A stretch of DNA of 64,000 nt from Candidatus Nomurabacteria bacterium. GTDB taxonomy: Bacteria; Patescibacteriota; Patescibacteriia; HK-STAS-PATE-3. The notes beneath the pieces were generated by a model. It had not been told where the DNA came from. It saw only the letters and a list, made by a program, of their open reading frames with translations, and ran no database searches. Of the stretch, positions 23,637 to 63,500 are shown piece by piece. How positions within the stretch are numbered: position 1 is the stretch's first letter; each line of letters opens with the position of its first letter. The stretch spans positions 160,001 to 224,000 of the forward strand of contig CP060223.1 of NCBI GenBank assembly GCA_023898465.1, given 5' to 3'. The position numbers and the translations under genes are program-made.

Positions 23637-23646
23637 GAATTTTTGC

Positions 23647-40849: not shown

Positions 40850-41881
40850 TTGATGCGAATAAATAGTAATTCGCGTCGAAAAAAGCATATTAGTCTGCTC
40901 GTCATTCTTGGAGTGACGATGCTGTTTTTTGGTGTTTCCCAAGCATTTGCGTATTGGACTGAGCCTGATTTACCAGCCCCTGATTCCAGCGTGGGATATC
41001 CGATTTTCCAGGGCAGTGCAAGTGATATTTCTAGCCTTCTCAGTCAAACTAAGACCGGTGGACTCACTATTGGTCCTCCTGGAACTTTAGATATATCAGG
41101 TGGATTAAACACCAGCACTGTTTCTAGCACCTCAAATGTGGTTGTGGACAGTGGCCAGCTCTGTTTAAACGGTTTGTGTATTAGCTCATGGGGTGCGATT
41201 GCGGGAGGATATGTCCATCTGAGCCCTATTTCGGCTGATGCGGGTACGCTTTGGGTGCAGAGTAACAGTTCTGACCCGGCGCTAAACTCAAAGATTATTC
41301 CTAAAAGCAACTTCTTTGGAGTCCGCAGTATTGCCGCAGAGCCAAGTCCAGCTGCTCAGACTGCTGGAATAGCAGGTGATAGTTCAGATCAAGCCTCACC
41401 ACCCGGAGACACTCCCACCTATGGTATCGGTGGCGTGGCGGTTAACATCTCCTTCTGTGTTGGTGGAAGTAACGCCGGCGAGGTGTGTACGGCAAATAGC
41501 GATTGTACTTCAAATGTTTGTACGCCATACGATAAGAGTACGGGTGTATGGGGCTCAAATGGTGGAAATGCGAATGCCTGGGCTGGACGTTTCGATGGTC
41601 GGGTCGGTGTAGAAGGCGAACTTTGTATTAACGGCGATTGTCGCGATGTTTCAAACTGGGGCCCACCTGGTGGGTATAACGATTATGTGCGGGTACAAGA
41701 CAGCGGTGATCCTATTTTCCAAAGCGGTTTGGTAAAAATTCAAGGTACAGTGAAGAGTGGTCAGTTTGTTTTAGGTGCGCCGACTGCCTCCACCTCAATT
41801 TTGTTGACCTGCGGCGATAATCTTTGTAATTACGGTGAAAATGGCGAAAATATTGTAAATTGCGCGGAGGATTGTTCCTAA
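40850..41881 (+). CDS. Secreted protein, short member of the paralog family (N-terminal EPD-motif domain only).
   Basis: Signal peptide, then YWTEPDLPAPD, QLCLNGLCISSWG, and a C-terminal TCGDNLCNYGENGENIVNCAEDCS that matches an internal motif of the 41883 and 47020 proteins. Confidence 0.75.
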   Translation: MMRINSNSRRKKHISLLVILGVTMLFFGVSQAFAYWTEPDLPAPDSSVGYPIFQGSASDISSLLSQTKTGGLTIGPPGTLDISGGLNTSTVSSTSNVVVDSGQLCLNGLCISSWGAIAGGYVHLSPISADAGTLWVQSNSSDPALNSKIIPKSNFFGVRSIAAEPSPAAQTAGIAGDSSDQASPPGDTPTYGIGGVAVNISFCVGGSNAGEVCTANSDCTSNVCTPYDKSTGVWGSNGGNANAWAGRFDGRVGVEGELCINGDCRDVSNWGPPGGYNDYVRVQDSGDPIFQSGLVKIQGTVKSGQFVLGAPTASTSILLTCGDNLCNYGENGENIVNCAEDCS

Positions 41882-41882: not shown

Positions 41883-43511
41883 ATGCGACATCTTTCCTCC
41901 ATTGGAACGCTGCTTCTCCTCATCATACTAGGGACGACTAATGCTTTGCCTGTGCATGCACAATGGGTCGAACCTGATACTGGTGAATTTCCTACCACCG
42001 GAGGAAGCACGCAAGCGCCTTTAAATACTTCCAACGTAGATCAAACAAAGACTGGATCATTCTTTTTACAGCGCGGCTTAACAGCGGAGAATGGAGTGAG
42101 TTCAAGCGGCGTACTCACGGTACAAAATGGTAATTTGCGTGTTACGCCAGACGGCGGCGGTCAAATTTGTCTCAACGGTGTATGTAAAAGCTCGTTAGAA
42201 ACAAGCTCGGATAACTATGTACGTTTGTCTGCGATTGATCCTGACCTCGGCTTTGTGCTACTCGGTGATGGCTCAACTAACGAAGGTTATTTAGACATTA
42301 GTTCGACCGAAACAATTGGCTTATACGGTATTGCCGGTGATCCTATAACAAAAAACACCTACGGTTTATTGGGTATTGCTGGTGCTGATGATGCTCCGTG
42401 GCCTAATTTTTCAGCCGGTGTTTTTGGTGAGGCTGGTGCAAATACAAGTCAATCGATTGGTTTATCTGGTGTGAGTCCCGATCCAGACGGCCCTGCCTAT
42501 GCAGCCTACTTTAAGGGGCGAGTGAATATTGTGGGATGTCTTGAGTGGAATGGAGGCACTTGCTTAAATGCGTGGCCAAGTGGATTACCAAGCGGTGAGT
42601 ATGTTGCGCTTCTTGAAGATGACGATGAGCCGCAAATAGGAAATATTGATTTATCGACCAGCTCGACAACAGTTTTTACTAGCGTTGTGTTAGGCGATGA
42701 CCCCTCGGGCTTAAGTTTACCTGTGACCTGTGGAGACGGTATTTGCAACAATAGCGAGAGTGGGCTTACTTGTGCGATCGATTGTTTCACCATTATCAAC
42801 CTCCAAGTTACCAATATTACGGATGGCAGTGCTACCGTTACCTGGCGTACGCTGATCAATGCTGATTCATATGTTGAGTATGGATTGACCAGCGATTTTG
42901 GTAGTGATGTATATGATGCCTCGATGGTGACGATGCACTCTTTGCAAATACATAGCTTGAATCATGATACGCATTACTATTTCCGGGTCCGCACAACGAC
43001 CGGCTCGGGCATTTCTCAAACCAGCTCGATACAATCATTCACAACCCTACTTGATCAGACAGCACCTAATGTGCCGGCTAATTTGCGAACTACAACCCCA
43101 GCACCAGATCGAGTGCCATTAGCGTGGTTCCACTCTCAGCTTGATAATCCGGGTGGATCTGGTTTTAAAGAGTTCATTGTTTATCGTGATGGATCACCCT
43201 ACGACACTACCGGTAATACCTACTATGTAGATTATTTCCCAGATCCTGGATATGACCACGTCTATTGGGTGACTGCTGTGGATAATCGTAACAATGAGTC
43301 AGAGGCTTCAAATCCACTTATCGTGCATGTACCAACTCCGTGTATTAGCGACCTTGACTGTACTGATCCGCAGTATCCAGTTTGTTATGGTGCATTGGGG
43401 TGTGGCACACCTCCGCCCGGAGGCTCGCCAGTCATGCTTAAAGAAATTCCCTTAGAGTATTCCCAATATCAGGATCCAGGTGGTTGGGATGAAGGAGGTG
43501 GCTGGTACTAA
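41883..43511 (+). CDS. Secreted paralog with N-terminal EPD-motif domain, FN3 domains, and Cys-rich C-terminus.
   Basis: Signal peptide, then QWVEPDTGEFP, QICLNGVCKSS, TCGDGICNNSESGLTCAIDCF, two FN3-like modules (VTWRTLINADSYVEYG...THYYFRV; ...YWVTAVDNRNNESE), and a C-terminal GGSPVMLKE motif. Confidence 0.8.
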   Translation: MRHLSSIGTLLLLIILGTTNALPVHAQWVEPDTGEFPTTGGSTQAPLNTSNVDQTKTGSFFLQRGLTAENGVSSSGVLTVQNGNLRVTPDGGGQICLNGVCKSSLETSSDNYVRLSAIDPDLGFVLLGDGSTNEGYLDISSTETIGLYGIAGDPITKNTYGLLGIAGADDAPWPNFSAGVFGEAGANTSQSIGLSGVSPDPDGPAYAAYFKGRVNIVGCLEWNGGTCLNAWPSGLPSGEYVALLEDDDEPQIGNIDLSTSSTTVFTSVVLGDDPSGLSLPVTCGDGICNNSESGLTCAIDCFTIINLQVTNITDGSATVTWRTLINADSYVEYGLTSDFGSDVYDASMVTMHSLQIHSLNHDTHYYFRVRTTTGSGISQTSSIQSFTTLLDQTAPNVPANLRTTTPAPDRVPLAWFHSQLDNPGGSGFKEFIVYRDGSPYDTTGNTYYVDYFPDPGYDHVYWVTAVDNRNNESEASNPLIVHVPTPCISDLDCTDPQYPVCYGALGCGTPPPGGSPVMLKEIPLEYSQYQDPGGWDEGGGWY

Positions 43512-46500
43512 TGCGCTATTTCCAACTTCATTTACGTAAACGTTTAACAAATCTGGTGACTTTTGGATTAGCCGTACTTATGCTCGGCGTACTTATGATT
43601 GCTAGCCGTTTCGTAGGTAACGCAAATGCAGAATTTGGACTGACACCACGGTGGTCAACTGAGCCTCATGTGGGAGATAGTTCAGTCTACATTGGTCCAT
43701 GGTCAGCACCGATACAAAACTCTGCTTCCAGTCGACTCTTTGTATATACCGATGATATTCCTGGCGGGGATCGCAATAATTACGTGTTCCGTGTGAACGA
43801 TGATGGTAGCTCAGTGTTAGGAACCAAACTCACTCCAGCGCTAAATGTGGGAACAAACCAGGGAAATAATTTTGGCTTTGTCTCAGATGGTATCGGCGGC
43901 GCTTACGTTGGTTGGACCTCTAACGTTATTGGGGTGGGGTATAACAACGTCATTGCTCGAGTAGGTTCAAGTGGTAATTTGCAGTGGGTGCGTGCAAACA
44001 ATGATGCCGTGGGTGTATCTGAAGTAAACTGGGGACAGTATTTAGCCTCAGACACGAGTGGCAATGCGCTTATTACTTACTTTAAGGGTAGTTCTGTGTG
44101 TGCGATGAAGCTTAGTCGAGCAACTGGTGTGAGTCAGTGGTCATCATCAGCCAATTGTACCGTGGGAGCTCGATCTGCCCGTGAAATTTATCACTCTAGT
44201 TCAAATGCCATTGTGCGAGGCATGATTTCTGATCAACAGGGCGGCATGATTGTGCTACATCGCGATGGCGCAGGAAGCATTTTGCATGCCACTCGAGTAA
44301 ATAGTACTGGTACCGTACTCTGGACAGTAAGCATTACCGATGCTACTGGTGGTTCTCCAACTGGATTAGAATTATTTGCCAAGACTCCAGATACTTTTTA
44401 TGCGATTTGGCGTAAGAGCTCATCAAACTTTATTCAAGCTTTTCACACCTCAGATGGAAGTGCTGCCTGGGTTAACCCCCTCCTCTTTGCTGAATCGAAT
44501 AGCTATGATCCATCAAGTCAATTTGATCGAGCAAAGTTTGTTTGGAGTGGAGCCGATGAGTTGGCCACCGCTTGGCGGCGAACATCTGATAGCGCCCTGG
44601 TAACGAATCGCATTAATGTGGAAACGGGCGCGAAGCGTTGGGCTTCCGACGTTGTAGTGACGACCGAAGCTGAGGATAATAACTATAAAGTGGCAGGGAC
44701 GGCTCAGGGAGTCACCTTCTTTGCCTATTGTCATGATAATGTGCCATCTGATTCAGCACTTTGTGAAATGCAGGGAGTGAGTGCGGGCGGAGCGCTTGTC
44801 TTTTCTGCTGACGGAGTTGATGTTCGACGGAGTAAACCAGATGACATGCAATTCGGTCTGCACACCGTTACTTCATCGACAAGTAACACATATTGTTTGG
44901 ATGAGGGCTTCCGACGTATTGGAGAATCTGTTGGTGCACAAAGTTATTGTCTGAATAGTTTACCTACAGTTTCAGATCCGATTTGTAGTATTGATAACGG
45001 TAGTAATTTTGTACTTTGTTCTGATGCACAACAGGGTTCAACGGTGAGTCACGTGCAAGTAACCTGTGACCCAGGAGATTTTGTCCCACTTTCAGAAGGT
45101 ATGGTAGCAAATACTAGTGGAGTGCACGAGGATTCTGCCTTTATTGAGGGTCGCTATGTGGTATATCGCTATCTTGACTCCGGTCCTCGATGGAAAGTGT
45201 ACGCGTACGATTTAGGTCCTGATCAGCAGTTTGGTACGGGTGATGACCTAGGCACAAAAATTTTGGTGGATGAGGGGAGTATTGATACCTACCCACAAGA
45301 TATTAAGAATGGAAGAATTTTATATTGGCGTTCAGCTGGTGGCACGGCCTCTTTGCGTTTTTATAACCTCAGTGATGACTCGATAGATCCAGGCACCTTA
45401 ACGAGCGTCGCCTTTTCTTCAATTTCTGGCTACGATGGACGCTACTTAGTCTATGCACCTAGCGGCACAACCAACTTGAGTGTGAAAGATTTAGGTGTGG
45501 ACGAGGTGCTCGGTACGGCTGATGACGGGGGAAGCACTCAGCTTAATTCGACGCCCATGGCAAACTATGCCCGGGTGAGTGGACGTTATGCAGTTGGGCA
45601 CTCCACCGGTGGTTTAGATGATATCTATCTCTTCGATCTTACTTCGATTACACAAACACCTGTATATAGCAATGCTTCGGTGCAAGCTGATGTGCCAGAT
45701 ATCCAAGGACGATATATTGCTTGGATGGATTTTCGTAATGATCCAAATGGGTACGATGATGGCAGCGGCACCAGCAATGGCGACATCTTCATTTATGACA
45801 TGGGTCCAGATGAACAATACGGCACCTCTGATGATATCGGTGAATCACAAATCAGCGCCTCGGCGAAAAAAGATAGCTCACCGCGGATTGCCGGTACAAA
45901 GATTCTCTGGCATCAAACACAGAATGGCGGCGCGTCCGATGCAAATCAAAACGTTATGATGTACGACCTCGGACCGGATGGTGAATATGGTACGGCCGAC
46001 GATACTTCAGAAACCCAATTAACCAATAGTCTTAATAATGAATACTGGCCACGCGGAGATGGTGAGAACATTGTTTGGTTAAGCGATCAAAACGGTCCAG
46101 CAAATACCGATATTTTTATTACACCAGCTGGAATTGGTGCTGCATCAATAAGCGAAGTTCGCTTCACTATGACTGCGCCATCTGGTACGCGTTATGTTGA
46201 TCAAGTAGCTGGTGAGGTGAATGCTTCAACGTATACTCTTTATTACCCTGAGCTCATTGACGAAGAGGGGCAGTGGACGGTACAAGCCACTTGTGAAGAT
46301 GTGGCTGGACAAACAGTGCAGCGTGAAAGTATTTGGGATGTTGGACCTTGGCCTTTTAGTGATCAGCAAAAACTTTCTGTCTACGACGGAGTAGCGCAAA
46401 TTTCTAAGAATTCCGGTGATACGATGGAGATAGGTAATGCTGGACGCGATATTACCTCGAATGGAAATATTTACATCCGCCCGAATAACAGTTACGCGGG

Positions 46501-47020
46501 AGCGTACTTCGAAGGCGTAGCTTCAACTGGATCGCAGCGACTCCATCTACCCTATGGTGTGCCAGGTCAACACACTGTCTTTGCCAAGGGCACAGGTACG
46601 GTAAATAGCGCAGATGGTGCGAGTGGAATTGCAGGAATTTTTACAGGACTCTCTAATAATGCAGGTGGCAGTGGGGTTTACGGTGATGTAATGAGTTGTG
46701 CAAGCAGCGGTGGATGTGCCGCAGGGTATTTCCAGGGTGGAGATCAGATTGGCCTCTACGCCTCGACAAACAATGCCTCTTTACCAGCCCTACGAGCAGA
46801 AAACGCTGCCACACCAAATGCATCTACGCTGAATATGTCCGCACTCTTTACGGGTAAGGTGCAAGTGAGTCAGGACCTCTCCGGTTCATTTAGCCCTGAT
46901 GCCTGTGTATGGGTGACGGTAGACGTGGGCGATACTGTGTGTCCAAACGAAGGCTTTGTCTTTGGTTACGATAGCACCAGTTTCGGAGTAGCTGATAAAC
47001 TTTATTGTTGCGGAAACTAA
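43511..47020 (+). CDS. Large secreted or membrane-anchored paralog of 1169 aa, with repeat units and the shared C-terminal YCC domain.
   Basis: An N-terminal TM/signal is followed by EFGLTPRWSTEPH. There are four repeats of about 45 aa (D[LM]G[PV]D..[YL]GT.DD.G). The last ~230 aa are homologous to the 48686 and 49461 proteins and end in LYCCGN. A TAATG stop/start overlap joins it to the previous gene. Confidence 0.8.
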   Translation: MRYFQLHLRKRLTNLVTFGLAVLMLGVLMIASRFVGNANAEFGLTPRWSTEPHVGDSSVYIGPWSAPIQNSASSRLFVYTDDIPGGDRNNYVFRVNDDGSSVLGTKLTPALNVGTNQGNNFGFVSDGIGGAYVGWTSNVIGVGYNNVIARVGSSGNLQWVRANNDAVGVSEVNWGQYLASDTSGNALITYFKGSSVCAMKLSRATGVSQWSSSANCTVGARSAREIYHSSSNAIVRGMISDQQGGMIVLHRDGAGSILHATRVNSTGTVLWTVSITDATGGSPTGLELFAKTPDTFYAIWRKSSSNFIQAFHTSDGSAAWVNPLLFAESNSYDPSSQFDRAKFVWSGADELATAWRRTSDSALVTNRINVETGAKRWASDVVVTTEAEDNNYKVAGTAQGVTFFAYCHDNVPSDSALCEMQGVSAGGALVFSADGVDVRRSKPDDMQFGLHTVTSSTSNTYCLDEGFRRIGESVGAQSYCLNSLPTVSDPICSIDNGSNFVLCSDAQQGSTVSHVQVTCDPGDFVPLSEGMVANTSGVHEDSAFIEGRYVVYRYLDSGPRWKVYAYDLGPDQQFGTGDDLGTKILVDEGSIDTYPQDIKNGRILYWRSAGGTASLRFYNLSDDSIDPGTLTSVAFSSISGYDGRYLVYAPSGTTNLSVKDLGVDEVLGTADDGGSTQLNSTPMANYARVSGRYAVGHSTGGLDDIYLFDLTSITQTPVYSNASVQADVPDIQGRYIAWMDFRNDPNGYDDGSGTSNGDIFIYDMGPDEQYGTSDDIGESQISASAKKDSSPRIAGTKILWHQTQNGGASDANQNVMMYDLGPDGEYGTADDTSETQLTNSLNNEYWPRGDGENIVWLSDQNGPANTDIFITPAGIGAASISEVRFTMTAPSGTRYVDQVAGEVNASTYTLYYPELIDEEGQWTVQATCEDVAGQTVQRESIWDVGPWPFSDQQKLSVYDGVAQISKNSGDTMEIGNAGRDITSNGNIYIRPNNSYAGAYFEGVASTGSQRLHLPYGVPGQHTVFAKGTGTVNSADGASGIAGIFTGLSNNAGGSGVYGDVMSCASSGGCAAGYFQGGDQIGLYASTNNASLPALRAENAATPNASTLNMSALFTGKVQVSQDLSGSFSPDACVWVTVDVGDTVCPNEGFVFGYDSTSFGVADKLYCCGN

Positions 47021-48681
47021 TGCATTCAAAACTACGCATCTCAATTTTCTTTCTCGCTACAATCATTGTAGGAACCTTTGCTTTCAGGGCGATGGCTTTT
47101 ATCGAGCCGGATGATTTCCCGCCCAGTGATACAACGAGCGCACCAGTATTGACTGGTCCACAGGATCAGACTCGTCAGGGACCCCTGACAGTGCAAGGCA
47201 ACGTTAGCGCTTCCGGACCTTTAATTACTCGTGATAGTGAAATCGTTACCTCCGGTGATGTTACGGTGAGCGGTGGTGCTTCAATTTGTTTGAATGGAGA
47301 TTGTATTAACGCATGGACAGCGGCACTTGGTGATTTTGTTCGTCTCTCGCCACCGTCATCTGACGACGGATATATTCACTTGCAAGGTGGGGCTACTTTC
47401 CAAGCTGCCACTGACGCTGACTTTGCTCTATATTCTCGCGCCATTGCTCCGACAGCTAGTGCGAGTTATGGCTTTTATGGCAAGTCTTGGACTGGTCCAG
47501 TTACGAATAACTATAGCTACGGCGTACTTGGAGTGGCAGCTCATGAGGGAATAAATCCCGGAGCCCTAGCTTATGGCATTTTTGGCTGGAATGGAGATAA
47601 CCTCAATGCCTATGCAGGCTATTTCACTGGGAATGTTCAGTTAGTGAATAACTCGGAACTTTGTCTGACTGATGGTTTCACTATTGACTGTCGAACCACT
47701 TGGCCAAATGGAGCACCGGGCGAAGAATTTCTCCTCTTACAAAATACTTGGCCTACTTCAAGTCAGATTGGAAACACCGCGGTGAGTGGAAATGCGCAAT
47801 TTGCGAATGCGCTGTTGGGTGATCCGGGCGCCGGCACTCTTACCTGTGGCGACGGATTTTGTTCCGAGGATGCGATCAGTTGTCCAATTGACTGCCCGAC
47901 GATAACGAACATCGATGCGGAGTGGCTGACCTCTAGCAGCGCCCAGTTTACCTGGACTTCAAATACGACGATGACCTCAGTAGTTCAGTTTGGTCTTTCA
48001 GATCTCTATGGTGGACAAGACATTGACGGTTCATATGTCACAAGTCATTCAATCACCATTGAGGGCCTAGATAGCGATCAGGATTATCATTACCGCGTTG
48101 GTGGTCTGACGGAAAATTCTGGTGCAGCTGTGTTTTCCTCAGATCAAATATTGTCAGCCAGCGTGGTTGATATTGATCCTCCGCCAGTTCCGAGTGGATT
48201 AGTACTTGATGTGCATATTCCACCTCCATCTCCAACAGAAATCATCGACTTAACCTGGGCTCATGATTTGAGCGATAACCCAGTGGGTGGAAGTGGTTTT
48301 AAAGAATTTCATATCTATCGATTAGACTGGTCAGTTGGTCCTCCCTTTGTAATGATTGGCACCACCACCGATTTGAATTTCATTGATGATTCAGGGGATT
48401 TGAGTCAGACAAATGATTATACCTATAGTGTCACTGCAGTGGATAATAATGGCAATGAGTCAGATCCTTTCGAGCGAGCAGTGCACATTCCAGCGAGGTG
48501 TTCTTTTGATGTGGAATGTGGCGTTGATCCGGGATATCCTTTCTGCTGTACATGGAATGAAGGTGATAAAGCCTGTAGCGCAACTTCTTGTAAAGGAGGC
48601 GGGTCTCCAATTATGTTGAAGGAAGACCCTCCGCCATTAGGGCCACCTCCATGTAACGGTCCTGATTGTTATGGACCATAA
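47020..48681 (+). CDS. Secreted paralog with N-terminal EPD-motif domain, FN3 domains, and Cys-rich C-terminus.
   Basis: AFIEPDDFPPSD, SICLNGDCINAWT, TCGDGFCSEDAISCPIDCP, FN3 modules (ITNIDAEWLTSSSAQFTWTSN...YHYRV; YTYSVTAVDNNGNESD), and a C-terminal GGSPIMLKE motif. The start is at the TAATG overlap (the tracked 47005 start is 15 nt upstream). Confidence 0.8.
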   Translation: MHSKLRISIFFLATIIVGTFAFRAMAFIEPDDFPPSDTTSAPVLTGPQDQTRQGPLTVQGNVSASGPLITRDSEIVTSGDVTVSGGASICLNGDCINAWTAALGDFVRLSPPSSDDGYIHLQGGATFQAATDADFALYSRAIAPTASASYGFYGKSWTGPVTNNYSYGVLGVAAHEGINPGALAYGIFGWNGDNLNAYAGYFTGNVQLVNNSELCLTDGFTIDCRTTWPNGAPGEEFLLLQNTWPTSSQIGNTAVSGNAQFANALLGDPGAGTLTCGDGFCSEDAISCPIDCPTITNIDAEWLTSSSAQFTWTSNTTMTSVVQFGLSDLYGGQDIDGSYVTSHSITIEGLDSDQDYHYRVGGLTENSGAAVFSSDQILSASVVDIDPPPVPSGLVLDVHIPPPSPTEIIDLTWAHDLSDNPVGGSGFKEFHIYRLDWSVGPPFVMIGTTTDLNFIDDSGDLSQTNDYTYSVTAVDNNGNESDPFERAVHIPARCSFDVECGVDPGYPFCCTWNEGDKACSATSCKGGGSPIMLKEDPPPLGPPPCNGPDCYGP

Positions 48682-48685
48682 GTAT

Positions 48686-49459
48686 ATGCAAATGCAAAAA
48701 CATCAATTCGTACTAATATTTGGAACTGTGCTTTTCTCTGCTCTCTTCCTGGTCAGTAGTGCCTTGCCTGAAAAAGGGTATGCGGCTACACCTTTTGGAG
48801 GAAACAGCAATAAGCGCTTGTCTATTTATAATGGTACTTTATTACTTGATGGTAGCGCACAATTGCGCTTAGGTAATGCCGGTCGCGATATTCAAGCAAG
48901 CGGGACTCTGTATCTGCGTCCTGATGGAAGCGCGCGTGGCTCCTTCTTCAGCGGTGTTACCAATGATGTTGGTCAGCGCCTTTCATTAACTGGCGGCATT
49001 AGTGGCAGTGATACTATCCAAGCCTCCTGGATCGGAACGAATGGAGTAGACGAAACTCGAGGCGCGGTCACTGGTTATTTCCACGGCGCTCCTGATAGTG
49101 CGGTTGGTGCCGCAATTTTTGGTGAAGTACAATCATGTGGTGTTGGGCAAACCTGTTACGCTGGTTACTTTGCCGGTGGCCAAAGCACAGGAGTGCAAAC
49201 GTATACGGCGACAAATCCAAACGGTGGAGCTACTCCTGCTTTGCAAGTATTAAATGCTGATGCAAATGGCGTAGCCGCTTCCTTTACCGGTAATGTGCAG
49301 ACAAATCGGCTTATTCTCGATAATAATACTCGTTCTGCGTGTACCTGGGAGTCGGTAAGCGGTGCAGAATTAGTCTGCCCTAGCGGAAAATTATTAGCCG
49401 GTGTCCGAGCGAGTAATACAGACCCAGTCATTTCTGATATTTATTGTTGTGAGCTGTAA
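48686..49459 (+). CDS. Secreted protein made up essentially of the shared YCC domain alone.
   Basis: Signal peptide, then LSIYNGT, GNAGRDIQASGTLYLRPDGS, QTCYAGYFAGGQ, and a C-terminal CPSGKLLAGVRASNTDPVISDIYCCEL. The start is chosen just after the upstream stop. Confidence 0.75.
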   Translation: MQMQKHQFVLIFGTVLFSALFLVSSALPEKGYAATPFGGNSNKRLSIYNGTLLLDGSAQLRLGNAGRDIQASGTLYLRPDGSARGSFFSGVTNDVGQRLSLTGGISGSDTIQASWIGTNGVDETRGAVTGYFHGAPDSAVGAAIFGEVQSCGVGQTCYAGYFAGGQSTGVQTYTATNPNGGATPALQVLNADANGVAASFTGNVQTNRLILDNNTRSACTWESVSGAELVCPSGKLLAGVRASNTDPVISDIYCCEL

Positions 49460-49460
49460 T

Positions 49461-51716
49461 ATGCAATTCCCGCGATTACATAAACTACACATTTTAAGCG
49501 CGATGTTCATCGCAGTGCTTGGTTTAGGTGTCGCAGTTGGTGCCTACACCTATTCAAACTGGACTCGACAGCAAAAAGGAGCCGAGAATACGAGCGCTAG
49601 TACTGATAATGGTCCAACCGCGAACGTGGTGCAGGGGACGGTGTCGGGTTGTGTAAGCGGTACCACGCAAACGGTTGATTGGACGATGGTACGAGATGGA
49701 GAGCTTATCGTTGTTGCACATTCTGAGTCACAGGAAAAACTTTGCATTTATGATTATAACAGCGTTGCCACTTCACCGATTCGACAATATGACATGACTC
49801 AATCCGAGCGAAGTCCGGTTGTGGTAGGGGATGTGCTCTATCGAGTCAAAAAAGGCTTAAGTCCAATTCAAGTAGAGGCACGTTCACTCATCGATGGATC
49901 AGTGCTGTGGACAAAAACGATTAGCTCAACTGCGGTGGGTAGTACTTACAATGTAATAACCGCAGCTAATGGCAATCTCTATATCGGAGCGAAATTTAAT
50001 GGATCCGAGCAGAGAGTGCTCGCACTGCAGCAGATTGATGGTCAGCTGTTATGGATGCGCACTATTGAGCCAAGCTTTGGCTTTTCGACCAGCGTTGAAC
50101 AGCTTGGCGCCTTAGCAGTTAGTAGTGATCAAGTGTTTATCCAATTTGTTGAAGGTTCGCTGTCTGATGGTCGGGTTGGTTATCGTGCGCTTAATGCGAG
50201 TACTGGAGCCGTGAACTGGACTGCCGGTCCTTATGGTTCCGGAGTGATTCGGACCAGAGCGTCACTAATTTACGCTGATAATGCTATTTATGCTGCGCCT
50301 GATGCATATATTTCTCTCAGTTCAGCTACTGGAAATCAAACCTGGAATCAAGCAATGGCAGCTACGAATGAGGCCTTAAGTATCGCCTATAGCAGCACTA
50401 AGGTGTACTACTCCGAGCGACGAAGCACGCAATACGCCTATCTCGCTCGAAGTGCTATAAACGGCGGTTTGTCATGGACAGCTGGAAATTATAACGGCTC
50501 TATTGGTGATGGTCCCCTTGTCGTAGTAAATAACAACTTCCTATATCACTGCGCAAATAGTACCTTGCGAGGCATTTCCACTGTGACTGGTTTTGTTACG
50601 TTCACGGGAGTTGCGCCCACCTTCTGCAATGCCGCTGCAGTATATAATGGAATATTGTATGTGAATGGTAATGCCGGCTCAGTAGACCAAGGTAAAGTGC
50701 GTTTAATCGCAAATACTTTGCCCGCAAGCGCTACAACAACAGTTGGTGTGCCGACATGTAGCATTGATAATGGTTCTAATTACGTTGATTGCGCGAACTT
50801 ACAATATGGCGCGATTGTGACACATGCTCGGACAACCTGTACGAGTACTGCAGGAGTAAAAGAGGTGCAGTTCACCTTAACAGGGCCCGCCGGTACACAA
50901 TACTCCTCAGTAAAAGCACAAACAGTCGTCGGTGCTACCTATACTACACATGCGCCGGGAACGCTCGTAGGTAGTGGGCAATGGACCCTGACGGCAAAGT
51001 GCGTGAATAGCATTAATGAGAGTACATCGAATCAAAAGATTTGGACTGTTGGATCTGCTCCAAGTGAAGGATCTCAGAAGCTTTCTATTTACGAAGGAAG
51101 CGCTCGCTTTACTGATGGTGAGACTATGGAAGCGGGTGCGCTCAGCGGAGATGCAAATATCGACTGGATTGGCTCTGATAGTATTTATGTTCGTCCAAAC
51201 ACTTCAAACGGTTCTTCATTCTTCCAAGGTGTTTCAGCACTTGATCGGCAAAGCCTCTATTTAAGCGGCGGCATTAATGCGAAACCAAGCTTGGAAGCAG
51301 TTGGTTTAGGACAAAATGGAGTACCGTACCTAGGCTCTGCTATTGCCTCAACTTTTGATGGGGCTAGTTTTTCCTCCGGTGGCGGTGCAATTTACGGAGG
51401 AGTGAGTAGTTGCGGGGCAGGGAAAACTTGCTACGCAGGATACTTCAATAACAGCTCCGAAACTGGCTATGGTATTCTCGTTACGAATAACTCCGCGTCG
51501 CAACCTACGCTTCGGGCGGAAAATTTAGCCGGTGGCACTGCAGCCAATTTCGTGGGCGTAGCTAAGGTGAGTGGCGATCTACAGGCAGATAATAATACGG
51601 TGAATAGTTGTACCTGGACACCAGTGAGTGCAAAAGAATGTCCGGCTGGGACTGTCGCCTCTGGTATGCGATTTAGCGGAGGAGTGGTGAGCGAATATAA
51701 TTGTTGTAGTCTCTAA
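49461..51716 (+). CDS. Secreted paralog with a beta-propeller-like N-terminal region and the shared C-terminal YCC domain.
   Basis: Signal/TM, then a region of about 450 aa, then LSIYEGS, IYVRPNTSNGS, KTCYAGYFNNSS, and a C-terminal ECPAGTVASGMRFSGGVVSEYNCCSL. Confidence 0.8.
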   Translation: MQFPRLHKLHILSAMFIAVLGLGVAVGAYTYSNWTRQQKGAENTSASTDNGPTANVVQGTVSGCVSGTTQTVDWTMVRDGELIVVAHSESQEKLCIYDYNSVATSPIRQYDMTQSERSPVVVGDVLYRVKKGLSPIQVEARSLIDGSVLWTKTISSTAVGSTYNVITAANGNLYIGAKFNGSEQRVLALQQIDGQLLWMRTIEPSFGFSTSVEQLGALAVSSDQVFIQFVEGSLSDGRVGYRALNASTGAVNWTAGPYGSGVIRTRASLIYADNAIYAAPDAYISLSSATGNQTWNQAMAATNEALSIAYSSTKVYYSERRSTQYAYLARSAINGGLSWTAGNYNGSIGDGPLVVVNNNFLYHCANSTLRGISTVTGFVTFTGVAPTFCNAAAVYNGILYVNGNAGSVDQGKVRLIANTLPASATTTVGVPTCSIDNGSNYVDCANLQYGAIVTHARTTCTSTAGVKEVQFTLTGPAGTQYSSVKAQTVVGATYTTHAPGTLVGSGQWTLTAKCVNSINESTSNQKIWTVGSAPSEGSQKLSIYEGSARFTDGETMEAGALSGDANIDWIGSDSIYVRPNTSNGSSFFQGVSALDRQSLYLSGGINAKPSLEAVGLGQNGVPYLGSAIASTFDGASFSSGGGAIYGGVSSCGAGKTCYAGYFNNSSETGYGILVTNNSASQPTLRAENLAGGTAANFVGVAKVSGDLQADNNTVNSCTWTPVSAKECPAGTVASGMRFSGGVVSEYNCCSL

Positions 51717-51717: not shown

Positions 51718-54700
51718 ATGGCATTTGTACAACGACATTCACGAGCACTATTTATCAGTATATTCGCAACACTTGTTATAGTGGCTGCTGGACTTCTTAT
51801 TGCAAAGGTTAGTTTTGCTGGGCTCGAGTGGGAGCCGCAAAAACCTCCAGAAGTATATCAGAATAACAGTAGCATCGACTTCTATAAAGTTGATTTCCAA
51901 CAAAACCCCAGCGATAATAAATACTATGGTTGGGTGGTAGGTGAGGACTTAAGCGGTAAACAATCAAGCCTCCTTTACTTTAATGGCGCTTTTTGGAAAT
52001 CAATTACCGACGACGGTTTGGGTGCGGGGTCGACATCGGACCTCTTTGATGTTTCCGCTGTTTGGAATTCAGATATTGATCAGTATCTTGTTTGGGCAGT
52101 AGGGGAAAATCAAGCGCTCTGGTATTTAACTGACAGCGAGACTGTGTGTAATAGTGAAGCTATCCCATGTCCTGATAGTCCAGCTGGAGCTGTGACTTTA
52201 AATTCGGTTGAAGGTGCTTGGTATAGCGGAGATGATAAAGTTGCCTTTTTTGTAGGTGATAACGGGCACATTTATCATGCAGTGGCTGATGATTACCAAA
52301 GCGCATTCGCCTACACCGCAGCATTTGCTACGAGCGGGACCATCCGCGATATTGATTCTTTTGACGCTGCACATACTTGGGCAGTATCAAGTGATGGCAA
52401 GATATATTTTAATAGCGATTATCTGACAAACTCGTGGGTGCAACAAGCCTCTTTCCCAGGCATTGATTTTACAGGAGTGTCAGCGGCAGATGCCAGCCAC
52501 GTATGGGCTTCGGCAATTAACGGCACAAAAGGTCAAATTTATTTTTACGACGGGTCCACCTGGTCGCTCCAATTCACTACAGTGCTTGATATTCCGCTTC
52601 ATGATGTGAGTGCATTTTATAATCCTACTTTATCTATTTATAATGCCTTTGCGGTTGGTGATATTGATTCCTCTACAGGCAACGGAGGTGTTTATCAATA
52701 TAATGGTACAATTTGGGAACGGCAGGATTCAAATAATAATGGTGAAGTATTACGCGGCATTTCTGCTGCCAGCCTTATTGAGATACGAGCCGTTGGTGCG
52801 AACACCACACTCTTAACCAGCTCACCGGGAAATATATTTGGTTGGATTTGGCTAGGATCAAGCACAAGTAATGGAAGTGGCGATGCGCTGGGATGGGGAA
52901 GCGGAAGCTGCGCTAATCTTGATAGTTGTGAAAGTGCTGGCTTTACTTACGGCGTAAACATCCGCCGCAGTGGCACCAGTCAAGGTGCTTTGTCTGGTTA
53001 CTTTTGGCTAGGGAATGCTGATCCGGATGCTTATATTCCAAATGACTGTGACACCGATCCAGGCGTCGAAGCTTGTCAATCTAATTCGAGCATTAGCTGC
53101 ACTACTGATTTTGAATGTCGTTGCGCTATTAATTCAGCAGCTTGTTTTTCAACTGGTTGGATGTCGTTTAACAAAAAAGGCTCGGATGGTGTGACTGATG
53201 AGGCTGGCACACCTCCAGCTGCACCGTACAATGATGGTGCGCAAAACTATATTGCTCGATTTGATGCAAAGACGGGTAAGGTAACTGGCTGGGCTCGTTT
53301 ACTTTCCTTATACGAAGATCCAAGCACTGGTGGCTGGATTCGTTTGCGAGGGAATGCAGTTACTCCGAATGTAGGTGACTTACCAGTCCGAGACTGTAAA
53401 AATTGTGGCAAATTCTGCAGTCTCGACACTACGTATAAGTGTACAGTTGACGCTGACTGTAATGTAGACGCAGACGGTGATGGAACAGATGAAAACTACG
53501 GCCCGTGTAATGTGAGTGTTTGTAAGATTTGTAATGCTTTAAATGATGAAACAATCGTTTCTGCAAACATGTGCTCAAATACCGGCGGCACCTCATGTAC
53601 GCGACGTTGTGAGCTTAACAACAGTATTACCTGTACCGATGATGCAGATTGTATAGGATTTGGCTCATGTGTGAATGAGACTTTTTGTGATTCTTGTGTG
53701 ACCTATGACCAATATGGTGTAGCGATTGATGACGCAACTGGTAAGATTACCGGCTATGCTTGGAGTGGCGCGTCTACTACATATGGTCAACTTGGCTGGA
53801 TTGATTTTAATCGAGCAAACTATTATAGCCAGGCTTGGTTACAGACCCAATTTGGGAATATCTACGCTCAAGCTGATATCGGTAGCGTTGGTACGCCAGC
53901 TGCTCCAGAGGGTAAATGTAATGCGACATACGTGATTAGTGCAGCTGGTACCATCACTAACTTCTGTTCGCGCTACGAAGAAATCGATCCAACCGCCCCG
54001 CCAGGGGACTACACCACTCGCCCCTTCATCCAGCAAAACTACGATGAAATTTATTATCCAACCGAGGCAAATAACTATACGAACGTCCTAGGAAAATTGG
54101 ATCCAGATGCTCTGGTGCAGGATGTGGGCGCTGGAAAAAATAAATATGGCGATGAAATCATTACGGTAAACAGCGATGCTGATTTACTTGACCTTGGCTT
54201 GTGTGATGCTGACGGAGTAACGCTTGATGGCAAGGTATATCATGTGGTTGGAAATCTCAGTATCGGTGTCTGTAATCCTGGTAGCGGTGATGTTACTGAA
54301 TTGATTATTAAGAATTCTTCACTCGCCAGTGGGTCAGGGACAATAGTGGTTGATGGTAATCTCACCATTGATATGAATATAAGCTACGAACAAAGTTCAA
54401 TCTCTAATATTAGAGATTTGGCCTCCCTGGGTGTGATGGTGAAGAAAAATATGATAGTGACTGGTGATGTAGATTCAATCGTCGGCTCCTATATCGTCTT
54501 TGGAACCGATGAGACAGAAGCTAATAAATTTAGTGGAATTAAGATTGAAAACTCCTTAATCGAACGCTCCTTTAGTGCGCAAGGTCTCATGATCGCCCGA
54601 GGCTTCAAATTCGAGCGCACATATCGTGGCACCTTAATCGATCCACAACCAGCTGAGCAGGTGGTATACGATGGACGGGTGATTGCAAATACGCCGCCAG

Positions 54701-54756
54701 GATTCCGTGATTTTGCGAAAGTCTTACCAGTTATTCGAGAAACCATACCTTTTTAA
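51718..54756 (+). CDS. Large membrane-anchored secreted Cys-rich protein (1012 aa) with an N-terminal EPQ motif.
   Basis: An N-terminal TM is followed by GLEWEPQKPPE. The middle is Cys-rich (CKNCGKFCSLDTTYKCTVDADCNVDADGDG...) and the C-terminus is beta-helix-like. It is the last gene of the paralog operon. Confidence 0.75.
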   Translation: MAFVQRHSRALFISIFATLVIVAAGLLIAKVSFAGLEWEPQKPPEVYQNNSSIDFYKVDFQQNPSDNKYYGWVVGEDLSGKQSSLLYFNGAFWKSITDDGLGAGSTSDLFDVSAVWNSDIDQYLVWAVGENQALWYLTDSETVCNSEAIPCPDSPAGAVTLNSVEGAWYSGDDKVAFFVGDNGHIYHAVADDYQSAFAYTAAFATSGTIRDIDSFDAAHTWAVSSDGKIYFNSDYLTNSWVQQASFPGIDFTGVSAADASHVWASAINGTKGQIYFYDGSTWSLQFTTVLDIPLHDVSAFYNPTLSIYNAFAVGDIDSSTGNGGVYQYNGTIWERQDSNNNGEVLRGISAASLIEIRAVGANTTLLTSSPGNIFGWIWLGSSTSNGSGDALGWGSGSCANLDSCESAGFTYGVNIRRSGTSQGALSGYFWLGNADPDAYIPNDCDTDPGVEACQSNSSISCTTDFECRCAINSAACFSTGWMSFNKKGSDGVTDEAGTPPAAPYNDGAQNYIARFDAKTGKVTGWARLLSLYEDPSTGGWIRLRGNAVTPNVGDLPVRDCKNCGKFCSLDTTYKCTVDADCNVDADGDGTDENYGPCNVSVCKICNALNDETIVSANMCSNTGGTSCTRRCELNNSITCTDDADCIGFGSCVNETFCDSCVTYDQYGVAIDDATGKITGYAWSGASTTYGQLGWIDFNRANYYSQAWLQTQFGNIYAQADIGSVGTPAAPEGKCNATYVISAAGTITNFCSRYEEIDPTAPPGDYTTRPFIQQNYDEIYYPTEANNYTNVLGKLDPDALVQDVGAGKNKYGDEIITVNSDADLLDLGLCDADGVTLDGKVYHVVGNLSIGVCNPGSGDVTELIIKNSSLASGSGTIVVDGNLTIDMNISYEQSSISNIRDLASLGVMVKKNMIVTGDVDSIVGSYIVFGTDETEANKFSGIKIENSLIERSFSAQGLMIARGFKFERTYRGTLIDPQPAEQVVYDGRVIANTPPGFRDFAKVLPVIRETIPF

Positions 54757-54838: not shown

Positions 54839-55927
54839 ATGGGTTTATTTAACAAAAAAGAAAGCTATCTCGGGATTGATATCGGCACTTCTAGTATTAA
54901 AGTGTCTGAATTCAGAAACGAAGAAGGTCGTCCGCGCTTGTTAAGTTATGGCTTTGTCGAGCAACCAAGCGAGGTTTTAAAAAGCGATTCACCCGAAGCA
55001 ATCCAGCAAGTGGTGACTACCTTGTTAGGTGTGTTTAAAAAGGGCCATATGCAAAGCCGCAAAGTGGTTTCGGCTCTGCCTAGCTACGCAGTTTTCACAT
55101 CGATTTTGAGCTTGCCAGTAATGCCGAAGAAGGATTTATACTCGGCAATTCGCTGGGAGGCAAAAAAAATCGTCCCAATGTCCCTCGATGAAATGGTGCT
55201 AGACTGGCGCTTACTCCATGACCCAGAAGAGGCGACTGATGAAAAAGGTAAAAAGAGCAAAAAGGATCAAATAAGCAGTGGAGGTCCTAAAAATACCCGT
55301 GTGCTCATTACGGCAGCTCCAAAAAACTTAGTTAAACGTTACATTGATATATTTAAACTGGCTGAGCTCGAAATCGTCAGCCTAGAAACCGAGTCATTTG
55401 CCCTTGTTCGTTCACTTCTTGGACGAGATAATTCCACAGTGATGGTGGTGGATATCGGGGCAATTGCCACGGAAATAAGCGTTATACTCGATGGTATACC
55501 TTTTCTCAATCGAAGTATCGACGTAGGGGGAGAAACTATTACGAAATCAATAGCCAATAGTCTCAATATTGATGCAGAACGCGCTGAGCAAATTAAGCGC
55601 GACTTTGGCGTTATGAGTGGGCCGAGCACGAGTCAGATTCCTCGGGTTATTGAATTTGTCATGCAGAATATCGTGAATGAGATTCGCTATATTTTATCGA
55701 TGTATCAAAATCAGGGCGAAAAGCCAATTGAAAAAATTGTGTTGTCTGGTGGATCAGCCTTCCTGCCCAATTTGCCTAGCTATCTCGAGCAGATGATTAA
55801 GCTCAAATGCTATATTGGAGATCCGTGGGCTCGAGTAGTCTACCCAGTAGAATTAAAGCCAGTGCTAGATGAGATTGGACCACGCTTTGCCGTGGCAAAT
55901 GGTCTAGCCATGCGTGAAATTGTGTAA
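54839..55927 (+). CDS. pilM: Type IV pilus assembly protein PilM (actin-like ATPase fold).
   Basis: The N-terminus LGIDIGTSSIKVSEF is typical of PilM. An acetate/sugar-kinase fold signature is present (VVDIGAIATEISV...LSGGSA). Confidence 0.85.
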   Translation: MGLFNKKESYLGIDIGTSSIKVSEFRNEEGRPRLLSYGFVEQPSEVLKSDSPEAIQQVVTTLLGVFKKGHMQSRKVVSALPSYAVFTSILSLPVMPKKDLYSAIRWEAKKIVPMSLDEMVLDWRLLHDPEEATDEKGKKSKKDQISSGGPKNTRVLITAAPKNLVKRYIDIFKLAELEIVSLETESFALVRSLLGRDNSTVMVVDIGAIATEISVILDGIPFLNRSIDVGGETITKSIANSLNIDAERAEQIKRDFGVMSGPSTSQIPRVIEFVMQNIVNEIRYILSMYQNQGEKPIEKIVLSGGSAFLPNLPSYLEQMIKLKCYIGDPWARVVYPVELKPVLDEIGPRFAVANGLAMREIV

Positions 55928-55930
55928 TCT

Positions 55931-57244
55931 ATGGATATTAATCTCCTAAAAGATACTCAGCGATCTGAGGACCAGAAGAAAAAACAGTTGAACTCAACTG
56001 GTAATCAGGAGATGACAAATCCAGACAAGCTCCCGCCCGCTAAACCGGAGCCAAAGCTGCCTTCACGCTTTAGCACCTGGCTACAATCCCTCCGTGGTAA
56101 AAAAAATCCTAAAGAAATGCAAGAGGAAGAAATTATTCAAGAACCAATAAAAGCCCCAAAAAGTCCAACATTTGATGAGAGCGCTCGACCCAAGACCGAG
56201 GATATTTTTGCTGACCTCGACACACCCTCTTCTCAGCCTGAGTCAAATCCAGAGCCAATCATGTCAGATGAAGAGTCTTTACAAACCTTTACGCCGCCAG
56301 AGCCTAAGAAAAAGCAAGCAATGCCCAATGCGGTGAAACCCCCACGCTTCACTCAGAAGATGGAAGAAATTAAAATGACGCCTCCGCCAGAGTTACCCAA
56401 GAAAAAGGTAAAGCAGCCAAAAATTTCCTCATCGCGCGACCAATCCTTTTTGGTAAACTTGCTGCCAACTGAGTTTCAGCGATCAATTGACCCCCGTTCG
56501 AAATTAATCAGCCTGGGAATTACCGTTTTAATCACCGCCTTAGTGATTGGAGCTGCCTATGGAGCGTTGACGCTCTACCGCACCTCTATTTTAGAGCAGA
56601 TTCAGAGTCTACGTACGGAGCGCTCGGTTGTAGAAAGTACTATTAGCGATTTGCGCCCGAGTCAGCGTGAGGCGATTACCACAAAAGAGCGGACTGAATT
56701 GGTAAAGACCTTACTTGACCAGCACGTGTATTGGACAAGGTTTTTTGAAAAGCTTGAGGAATATACCATTGATGACGTGTATTACATTGGTGCCTTTAAT
56801 GGAAGTCTGGGTGGTCAAATTACGCTTTCGGCAGTTGGCACTTCCTTTAGTGCTCCGGCGCGCCAGTTAATTGCTTTTCAACAAGCCAGCGACTTTGTTT
56901 CCAGCGTGCGAATTACCTCAGCCCGTTCGGCTGATTCAGCCACTGGAACCACCGTCGGCAGCACCGGCACTGAGCAGATTTCTTTTTCGGTAACACTAAG
57001 CCTACTGCCTGACCTTTTCTATTATGATGCTTCTACCTTCCCCTTAGAGCGAATCGGCAATGTAACAACACCTTTGCCCGGTGACACTTCGCTCTTACCT
57101 GGTGCAACCGGAGTACCGGACTTAGGGACATCCACCAATACCAATACTTCAGGAGCTACAAATACGAACACCTCGACAAATACTAATTCAAGTACGAATA
57201 CCAACACCAGCACGACGCTTAATAGCAATATCTCGAACCCATGA
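55931..57244 (+). CDS. pilN: PilN-like pilus assembly protein with an unusually long Pro/Lys/Glu-rich cytoplasmic N-terminal extension and a T/N-rich C-terminal tail.
   Basis: The PilN motif (FLVNLLPTEF) lies immediately before a single TM (LISLGITVLITALVIGAAYGALTLY). A periplasmic domain follows. The C-terminus is low-complexity TNTNTS. The N-terminus also begins MDINLLK. Confidence 0.7.
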   Translation: MDINLLKDTQRSEDQKKKQLNSTGNQEMTNPDKLPPAKPEPKLPSRFSTWLQSLRGKKNPKEMQEEEIIQEPIKAPKSPTFDESARPKTEDIFADLDTPSSQPESNPEPIMSDEESLQTFTPPEPKKKQAMPNAVKPPRFTQKMEEIKMTPPPELPKKKVKQPKISSSRDQSFLVNLLPTEFQRSIDPRSKLISLGITVLITALVIGAAYGALTLYRTSILEQIQSLRTERSVVESTISDLRPSQREAITTKERTELVKTLLDQHVYWTRFFEKLEEYTIDDVYYIGAFNGSLGGQITLSAVGTSFSAPARQLIAFQQASDFVSSVRITSARSADSATGTTVGSTGTEQISFSVTLSLLPDLFYYDASTFPLERIGNVTTPLPGDTSLLPGATGVPDLGTSTNTNTSGATNTNTSTNTNSSTNTNTSTTLNSNISNP

Positions 57245-57909
57245 AAATCTTCGGCAAAAGCTTCACTGAATTCTTAATTGAGCAATACCGCTATGTATTA
57301 GTGGCGGTTGCGCTTATACTTGCTTTGGTCGGCTATCTGGTGTTTATTGGACCGGAATTGCAAGAAGTCCGTCGTTTCGGTACAGCTGACTTAAAAGATG
57401 AGAAATCGAAATTAGAAGATCGGAAAACCTATTTGACTCGTTTACAGGGCATGCTTGATGCCTATAGTACGCTGAATCAAAATAGTTTAAGCGAGTTAGA
57501 GGGGGTGCTACCGACCTATGAAGATATCCCTGACCTCTTCATTATTGTAGAGGACTTGGCCAAGCAGAGTGGCTTATCACTCAGTTCTGTTTCTATTAAT
57601 CCGGCGAATTTAGAATCCGAATCAAGCGCAGCCGGTGCAAGTACAACATCGCTGAGTCAGTTGGCTAAATCAAAGAACTTAAAAGCCTTTGACATCTCAG
57701 TGACGGCTATTAATGGTACTTCATACGAAGATTTCAAAGACTTTATTACGAATATCGAAAATAGCAACCGCCTGTTTGATGTGCGATCTATGCAGTTTAC
57801 GCCGGAGCCGCGTCAGTCAGCTGACCGTACGAGTGAGACCTCAGCTGCTACGACTCCGTACTCAATCAACTTGCGCACTTATTATATTGACGGTGAGGAG
57901 GCTTCCTAA
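57241..57909 (+). CDS. pilO: PilO-like pilus assembly protein.
   Basis: A 222-aa ORF with an N-terminal TM (YVLVAVALILALVGYLVFIG), a coiled-coil, and a periplasmic domain. It occupies the PilO position in the pilMNO order. Confidence 0.6.
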   Translation: MKIFGKSFTEFLIEQYRYVLVAVALILALVGYLVFIGPELQEVRRFGTADLKDEKSKLEDRKTYLTRLQGMLDAYSTLNQNSLSELEGVLPTYEDIPDLFIIVEDLAKQSGLSLSSVSINPANLESESSAAGASTTSLSQLAKSKNLKAFDISVTAINGTSYEDFKDFITNIENSNRLFDVRSMQFTPEPRQSADRTSETSAATTPYSINLRTYYIDGEEAS

Positions 57910-57912
57910 GCT

Positions 57913-58206
57913 ATGGCACTGGTACAGAAAAGCAATAAAAAGAGCGTCACTATTTTACTCAGCGTCCTGGTCGGTGTCACGGTGATTGGTTTACTTGTGT
58001 ATTTCCTGGTTATCGCTCCACCGGATGTTGATCCAAATGTGAATACCTCCAATAATATTGTGCAGAGAGATTTGCCAATCTACACTACCTTTGGCGAAGA
58101 CTTGTTTGATGATCCGCGTTTCCGCGCCCTCGTGCCCTATGGTGATCTGCCGGTTGATCTAGGTGACGTGGGGAGGACTAACCCATTTGAGAAGCCATCC
58201 CCATGA
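57913..58206 (+). CDS. Small single-TM protein of the pilus operon.
   Basis: A 97-aa ORF with an N-terminal TM (VTILLSVLVGVTVIGLLVYFLVIA). It is translationally coupled, overlapping pilB by 4 nt. Confidence 0.5.
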   Translation: MALVQKSNKKSVTILLSVLVGVTVIGLLVYFLVIAPPDVDPNVNTSNNIVQRDLPIYTTFGEDLFDDPRFRALVPYGDLPVDLGDVGRTNPFEKPSP

Positions 58207-59984: not shown

Positions 59985-60009
59985 TTTTGCCAATAATTTT
60001 ATTACGCCT

Positions 60010-60420: not shown

Positions 60421-60421
60421 C

Positions 60422-61498: not shown

Positions 61499-61504
61499 TT
61501 ACTT

Positions 61505-63459: not shown

Positions 63460-63470
63460 GGTTGATAAAC

Positions 63471-63500
63471 AAAAAAGGGGTGCTAGTTGACCCCTTTTTT
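63471..63500 (+). terminator. Rho-independent terminator (bidirectional hairpin).
   Basis: AAAAAAGGGG, loop tgctagttga, CCCCTTTTTT. This is a 10-bp perfect stem with A- and T-tracts, located 12 nt after the pilin-frame stop. Confidence 0.8.

Follow-up and report, generated by a model that had tools for sequence, protein, structure and literature searches.

In the window, which is the whole 64-kb stretch analyzed here of Candidatus Nomurabacteria bacterium, an uncultivated organism of ultrasmall cell size (contig CP060223.1, positions 160,001 to 224,000), three secreted proteins encoded in a single seven-gene operon, here named A, B and C, end in a vicinal Cys-Cys pair (CC). The C-termini of the three proteins are homologous and form a genuine domain of ~220 amino acids (aa), and we suggest that the terminal CC probably contributes one half of each of two structural disulfides in a 45-aa, three-stranded C-terminal module and that it is not a lipid anchor or a sorting signal. 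The three genes and the shared domain have the following positions:

43511-47020, + strand: gene A, 1169 aa, identical to P0005
48671-49459, + strand: gene B, 262 aa counted from the first ATG
49461-51716, + strand: gene C, 751 aa, identical to P0006
46352-47017, + strand: shared tri-modular domain of A, aa 948-1169, ending LYCCGN (hidden Markov model (HMM) envelope, alignments and BLASTP)
48791-49456, + strand: shared tri-modular domain of B, aa 41-262, ending IYCCEL (the sequence used for modelling)
51060-51713, + strand: shared tri-modular domain of C, aa 534-751, ending YNCCSL (HMM envelope, alignments and BLASTP)

When MAFFT is used to align the final ~245 residues of A and of C with full-length B, the motifs align column by column, and an alignment of A, B and C with three B orthologs contains 36 invariant columns of which six are Cys. 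Pairwise BLASTP with composition-based statistics over ~220 residues gave 33% identity for A/B (E 1e-36), 35% for A/C (E 3e-31) and 39% for B/C (E 2e-38). With 60 shuffles per partner as a control, the real pairs score 101-119 bits vs a shuffled maximum of 20.4 bits. Because the shuffles never exceed this value, the similarity is positional and reflects homology rather than Gly/Ser composition, in agreement with the initial annotation, which had also described correctly the open reading frames at 43511, 48686 and 49461 and the exact endings of the three proteins. The ordered motifs that it assigned to the domain are mostly right, with the correction that not every motif is present in all three proteins: GNAGRDI reads GDANIDW in C, TCYAGYF reads GCAAGYF in A, PALRAEN reads PALQVLN in B, and CPxG reads CPNEG in A.

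The proteins carry the shared domain in different architectures. A consists of a signal peptide, an N-terminal domain of ~430 aa, an immunoglobulin (Ig)-like region interrupted by beta-propeller repeats that match TIGR04275 with a score under the curated cutoff, and the shared domain. C consists of an N-terminal hydrophobic anchor or signal, a propeller-like region with PQQ_2 matches in orthologs, an Ig-like region and the shared domain. B is a signal peptide followed by the shared domain and nothing else, as had been noted; its start is ambiguous given that the ATGs at 48671, 48686 and 48692 are equally possible, the last of these being the NCBI start (which gives P0001). The likeness between A and C runs ~100 aa further upstream than described earlier: before the domain, A (44950-46350) and C (50770-51060) share an additional stretch with the pattern PxCSIDNGSN...C...C, which is probably Ig-like and which in A is split by ~360 aa of TIGR04275-type beta-propeller repeats.

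Re-scored profile matches divide the shared domain into three separable modules: (i) the N module (profile positions 1 to ~100) with the motifs QKLSxYxG, GNAGRDI and IYxRPN, (ii) the M module (~100-175) with SCx5CYAGYF, and (iii) the C module (~175-218), which comprises ~45 aa with the pattern C-x-W-x(7-13)-C-P-x-G-x4-G-x(8-14)-[YQ]-C-C-x-[LI]. The cysteines of the M and C modules are located as follows:

46697-46717, + strand: M-module Cys pair of A, C1063 and C1069 in SCASSGGC
46904-47017, + strand: C module of A, with C1132, C1144, C1166 and C1167 (C-x-W...CPNEG...YCCGN)
49340-49456, + strand: C module of B, with C224, C236, C259 and C260
51609-51713, + strand: C module of C, with C717, C727, C748 and C749

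Across 21 aligned C-module sequences all four Cys and a single Gly never vary, the Trp is conserved in >90%, and the spacing between the cysteines is tight (9-15 and 20-24 residues). The CC is present in every homolog with a complete C-terminus, i.e. in 30/30 matches to the C-module pattern, and exactly two residues follow it in 27 of these 30 sequences. Both Cys of the M-module pair are lost together in P0020, as expected of a local disulfide in the M module, and the pair in A is likely to form such a bond.

Two homologs carry large insertions around the C module. In P0012 (an ortholog of C; L002, 10807-14394) modules M and C are separated by 415 inserted aa that share 35% identity with the N-terminal domain of A (E 2e-76), which argues that a domain cassette has moved between the paralogs, and in the B-type protein P0007 (L010, 7098-8924) a Kelch/DUF5122-like beta-propeller of ~330 aa lies between Cys1 and Cys2 of the C module. 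Judged from these sequences, the C module is structurally autonomous and tolerates large inserts. The N module occurs in the absence of M and C in ~45 other secreted proteins, often directly behind the signal peptide. These N-module-only proteins (among P0022-P0073) have other recurrent ends, either the Cys-rich ...C-L-C-[YIKR] or F-x-Y-E-[VI]-V-x-x-R-x-G-[FY]-x3-R-F, a sequence pattern that suggests a stem family with interchangeable end caps.

The family is real but very rare. An exhaustive profile (HMM) search of 1.84 billion representative proteins (E up to 1e-3) matched 72 proteins, of which 17 have the full domain (E below 1e-30), ~45 only the N module and ~10 only the C module. Word-index homolog searches returned only four B-type proteins and missed A and C themselves, a search with a 52-column C-module profile gave no match, and a scan of 185,579 species-representative genomes gave one locus only, L006, whose genes are arranged as in L002. 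Neither A nor B nor C matches Pfam, NCBIfam or PHROGs, no curated family matches the 220-aa domain, no sequence in the PDB matches B or the family profile, phage tblastn matched nothing, and a literature search found no description of the shared domain or of the operon. The 220-aa domain and its C module are undescribed families.

The distribution of the C module bears directly on whether the CC is a terminal signal. In P0063 and P0076 the module occurs three times in tandem, so that two CC pairs (YLCCPLT and YYCCNLD) lie inside the chain and precede further modules. These internal copies argue that the CC is not a terminal signal, and the hydrophobic residue at CC+2, which is retained in them, argues that the CC and the following Leu are part of the fold. 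The C module also ends proteins that are otherwise unrelated to A, B and C (P0051, P0052, P0067, P0074, P0075 and P0038); the shafts of P0051, P0052 and P0067 match phage tail-fibre PHROGs (E 1e-5 to 7e-13), and P0052 adjoins a Peptidase_S74 fibre gene. P0076 (L004, 6001-12612) lies downstream of a sigma-54 activator and adjoins a Vps62-family gene and a gene for a 2344-aa SpvB/TcdB/RHS (Tc-toxin-like) protein, a setting that is clearly outside the Candidate Phyla Radiation (CPR).

AlphaFold2 modelling of the B domain with six sequences gave a mean predicted local distance difference test (pLDDT) score of 39.6. With a 27-sequence alignment, residues 180-222 of the modelled domain reached a pLDDT of 84-92 and contain three predicted strands (182-188, 201-207 and 214-221). 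In the model, Cys1 of the C-x-W element is in strand 1, Cys2 of the C-P-x-G element is just ahead of strand 2, and the CC is within strand 3, the last strand of the confidently modelled C module. Neighbouring residues in a strand face opposite sides, and the simplest arrangement is two disulfides, each with one Cys of the CC. The two cysteines of the CC are probably not bonded to each other as a vicinal disulfide, and it is more likely that each of them bonds one of the other two cysteines of the module.

The other proteins of the operon share the Cys-rich, secreted character of A, B and C:

40850-41881, + strand: gene D, 343 aa, first gene of the operon; secreted, fibre-like, Cys-rich
41883-43511, + strand: gene E, 542 aa, second gene; secreted, fibre-like, Cys-rich, with an fn3 domain
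47005-48681, + strand: gene F, 558 aa, a paralog of E between A and B that lacks the CC domain
51718-54756, + strand: gene G, 1012 aa with 30 Cys, the final gene, kept in all related loci

The seven genes D, E, A, F, B, C and G are co-directional, and at their tight junctions the spacing runs from an overlap of 16 bases (A/F) to gaps of 1 base; the F/B junction is as ambiguous as the start of B. All seven proteins have N-terminal signal peptides or anchors, and all seven have even numbers of Cys (12, 12, 16, 16, 6, 14 and 30), many of which form obvious local pairs (C-x4-C, C-x5-C; LCLNGxC). Elsewhere in the window, a DsbA-like thiol-disulfide oxidoreductase is encoded that is plausibly the catalyst of these disulfides:

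21811-22449, + strand: DsbA-like protein, anchored in the membrane at its N-terminus, with the active site CEFC (Thioredoxin_4 E 2e-29, DSBA E 2e-17)

Because of the four invariant Cys, the confident strand model, the even Cys counts, the joint loss of the M-module pair in P0020 and the DsbA-like gene, we favor a disulfide staple. Thus, of the four meanings previously proposed for the CC, the staple fits the data, and anchoring, lipidation and a sorting signal do not. In the mechanism that we suggest, the proteins would be exported by Sec and subsequently oxidized outside the cytoplasm, probably by the DsbA-like enzyme; the CC would represent two half-cystines on opposite faces of the last strand that tie this strand to the rest of the module; the chain would stop two residues past the CC because the last strand ends there, with the final Leu/Ile as a core residue; and secreted, fibre-like surface proteins would carry the shared domain at their distal end, as a cap or for assembly. 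We infer the fibre or oligomeric nature of the proteins, and any link to pilus function, from these data.

Several observations weigh against this interpretation or parts of it. The pairing of the cysteines is deduced from the model rather than observed. The N and M modules are poorly modelled (pLDDT below ~55), so that most of the domain is only a putative fibre or beta-helix, and structural searches gave no significant match; below significance, Foldseek against the PDB returned sarcoglycans as the top match and the Mu tail fibre, and the BFVD returned tail fibres and two local matches of 42-45 columns to viral proteins. The near-fixed two-residue tail together with the clade-specific dipeptides behind the CC (EL, [STKN]L and G[NTQ]) could mean that a free C-terminus is recognized. 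Finally, the synteny with pilM described below is found among fairly close relatives and could reflect shared ancestry and not function, and there is a promoter-like site between G and pilM (in a promoter/terminator scan that itself performed at chance level).

The paralogs and their operon are conserved as a unit. A neighbour-joining tree of 18 full domains contains three paralog clades with characteristic tails, i.e. CCEL in the B type, CC[STKN]L in the C type and CCG[NTQ] or CCDT in the A type; the protein in the A position of L009 ends in CCEL like B, so that the tail signatures are not absolute. In an HMM scan of all fetched loci, every complete operon contains exactly three CC-domain genes, at positions 3, 5 and 6 (the window, L001/L002/L006, L003 and L009), and L010 contains two because its contig ends; together these loci represent five lineages. 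pilM is the next gene after the operon wherever the contig extends that far. In this small group of CPR bacteria, the seven-gene operon has a fixed place immediately ahead of the genes for type IV pilus assembly.

That each operon in five lineages has exactly one gene for every position, and that the paralogs fall into three ancient clades, raises the possibility that the shared domain is a trimerization unit and that A, B and C form one heterotrimeric fibre, in which three C modules would pack as a pseudo-threefold, beta-prism-like cap, A and C would bring propeller "payloads" and B would be the third chain. This proposal, which we regard as possible if on the unlikely side, extends and does not exclude the disulfide staple, and the vicinal CC might in such a fibre also make inter-chain disulfides. 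Phage tail fibres are homotrimers, and the number three recurs here as three tandem modules in the P0063 chain, three paralogs per operon and single copies in tail-fibre-like proteins. Moreover, the N and M modules are not resolved by monomer modelling, a failure that obligate triple beta-helices usually show, and there is a precedent in the P22 tailspike, in which C-terminal cysteines take part in trimer assembly (PMC3357383). On the other hand, all structural matches are under significance, the CCEL ending in the A position of L009 breaks the correspondence between clade and tail, and the three paralogs could equally be separate homo-oligomers or monomers.

Alternatively, the C module could be mainly a ligand-binding, lectin-like knob for a molecule on the surface of a host cell, with disulfides that only add robustness, and A, B and C would then be three adhesins of differing specificity. 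The position of the module at the distal C-terminus of tail-fibre-like proteins, the location of the triple-module protein P0076 beside a Vps62 protein and a Tc-toxin gene, and the Cys1-Cys2 loop, which varies from 9 to 15 residues and accepts a whole propeller in P0007, are in line with such a role, as is the requirement of episymbiotic CPR bacteria for host adhesins (PMC11623550). Profile searches found no likeness to any known lectin family, however, and within a clade the C module is strongly conserved and not hypervariable. We therefore consider a function primarily in binding rather unlikely; a binding-knob role would be compatible with either a staple or a trimer.

In an even more far-reaching scenario, the operon would encode a dedicated CPR host-attachment fibre that works with the type IV pilus, in which A, B and C zip via the 220-aa domain into a heterotrimeric stalk with a disulfide-locked, pseudo-threefold beta-prism cap that can be built from one chain with three tandem repeats, from three identical chains in the tail-fibre-like proteins or from three paralogs in this operon. 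We hold this scenario to be improbable; if true, the C module would be a new, minimal trimer-capping fold.

It is highly improbable that the four Cys of the C module bind a metal ion in a Cys4 knuckle. Four invariant Cys within a small module would be suited to such a site, and many CPR bacteria inhabit anoxic groundwater, in which extracellular disulfides are less favored. Yet the arrangement C-x(9-15)-C-x(20-24)-CC is without the CxxC pairs that make up the knuckles of Zn/Fe sites, these are secreted proteins, the window contains a gene for a DsbA-like oxidase, and the even Cys counts across the operon include the local C-x4-C and C-x5-C pairs; on these grounds a metal-binding Cys4 site was rejected.

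It is likewise highly improbable that CC-x-x at the C-terminus acts as a signal for sorting, anchoring or lipidation, whether similar to CaaX/CCXX prenylation or a novel tag of the sortase or exosortase type, for the internal CC pairs of P0063 with their conserved hydrophobic CC+2 speak against it. What speaks for it is the two-residue tail in 27 of 30 sequences, the final residue, which is mostly Leu as in geranylgeranyl CaaL boxes, and a nearby M48 peptidase gene that lies with lemA upstream of the operon on the opposite strand and is syntenic in relatives. However, LemA-M48 pairings are widespread, and with 301 aa the M48 protein is HtpX-like in size. The layout of LPXTG, PEP-CTERM and GlyGly-CTERM signals is absent, given that only two residues follow the CC and that there is no hydrophobic or transmembrane stretch and no basic tail; A, B and C have no match to NCBIfam sorting domains, no dedicated processing enzyme is encoded in the operon, and no sortase- or exosortase-like gene is present in the operon or the 64-kb window. 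The position of the cysteines fits a CaaX or Rab CCXX box, but these occur on cytosolic proteins, and the N-terminal Sec signal peptides or anchors place the C-termini outside the cytoplasm, which makes cytosolic prenylation implausible; nor does the window encode a protein prenyltransferase. Prenylation was rejected despite the nearby M48 peptidase on account of the Sec signals and the internal CC copies.

The remaining operon proteins display recurrent motifs of their own. D, E and F carry TCGDGxCN...C..DC. Directly behind the signal-peptidase site predicted for each of D, E, F and G comes [FWY]-x-E-P-x(2-3)-P-P (YWTEPDLPAP, QWVEPDTGEFP, FIEPDDFPP and LEWEPQKPP, respectively), which is also found at the N-termini of the otherwise unrelated matches P0028, P0031, P0061 and P0051 and may serve in recognition or assembly as a conserved N-terminal element. 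The C-termini of E (43400-43511) and F (48560-48681), two paralogs that each contain fn3, have GGSP[VI]MLKE followed by a short Pro/Gly-rich tail; this motif is retained in the L002 and L003 orthologs of E/F and could be a processing or attachment motif.

Two further gene clusters lie in the window, and the tandem pilin genes at the end of the first begin identically (KKGFTLIELLVVIAIIG...REKARDAQAKSDLGQMRT):

54839-62713, + strand: type IV pilus genes directly downstream of G, i.e. pilM, a possible pilN, pilO, pilB, a response regulator, pilT and pilC
59953-60420: stand-alone response-regulator receiver gene between pilB and pilT
~62900-64000: two tandem type IV pilin genes downstream of pilC, with KKGFTLIEL N-termini
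9127-24990: conjugation-like type IV secretion system (T4SS) cluster, which includes the DsbA-like gene
Members of the T4SS cluster: VirB6/TrbL at 9127, PrgI at 15606, a VirB4-like ATPase at 16822, and T4SS-pilin-like proteins at 19356 and 22446

The T4SS-pilin-like protein at 22446 is a fusion with an SLT transglycosylase. Three giant proteins (1072-1563 aa) are encoded upstream.

Among the known systems nearest to the C module are the end domains of phage tail fibres and tailspikes and of similar bacterial proteins, such as the intramolecular-chaperone ends of the Peptidase_S74 type and the Cys annulus of the P22 tailspike; like these, it is a small autonomous module at the C-terminal end of elongated, Gly/Ser/Asn-rich, secreted proteins of beta structure. 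The same module replaces the usual end where shafts match tail-fibre PHROGs, and in the case of P0052 it is found next to an S74 fibre gene. In contrast to these systems, it has no sequence match and no significant fold match to any tail-fibre end domain; Pfam finds no Peptidase_S74 domain (PF13884) in A, B, C or the other C-module carriers; A, B and C have no PHROG match and no protease or chaperone motif; and the setting here is a cellular, pilus-linked operon in a CPR genome and not a prophage. Three paralogous chains that are clustered and share one C-terminal domain are also found in C1q A/B/C and in the tower of beta/gamma/delta-sarcoglycan. This is an analogy without homology: the sarcoglycans are the top Foldseek match yet not a significant one. 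The PilY1/PilC tip adhesins are likewise large, Sec-secreted beta-propeller proteins encoded with type IV pilus genes, but PilY1 has no such C-terminal Cys module. The PilY1/PilC beta-propeller domain corresponds to Pfam PF05567, which gave no match with a cutoff of E 0.1; the propeller matches are generic repeats of the PQQ_2 or Msarc type. Resistin and the RELM proteins end in ...CC-x3-6 in a disulfide-rich trimeric head, with the Cys signature C-x11-C-x8-C-x-C-x3-C-x10-C-x-C-x-C-x9-CC-x3-6, and this signature is absent from the shared domain. The APC-beta prism of Toxoplasma PLP1 is composed of three repeats, each of which has ~80 aa and folds as a sandwich of 4+2 strands that contains two conserved disulfides (PMC5943054); a related beta-prism is the MABP/MACPF-associated one. 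The C-module profile touches only the CPxG element, in each of the three PLP1 repeats (E 0.34), which is a lead and no more. The C module has ~45 aa and three strands, and three tandem copies are seen only in P0063/P0076.

The terminal CC is a structural feature and not exotic biology, and the general kind to which the shared domain belongs, a disulfide-stapled end domain of fibrous secreted proteins, is familiar. The 45-aa module with its four Cys is a small fold that has not been described before and that recurs at the ends of tail-fibre-like proteins beyond this group; defining it would improve the annotation of many "hypothetical" fibre proteins and would provide a compact, testable model for the capping of fibres. 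For CPR bacteria (Patescibacteria), which rely on attachment to a host cell, hardly any of the surface machinery has been characterized. The conserved pilus-adjacent operon of seven Cys-rich secreted proteins is a candidate part of this machinery, and it is this operon, together with a possible three-chain assembly of A, B and C, that remains of interest.

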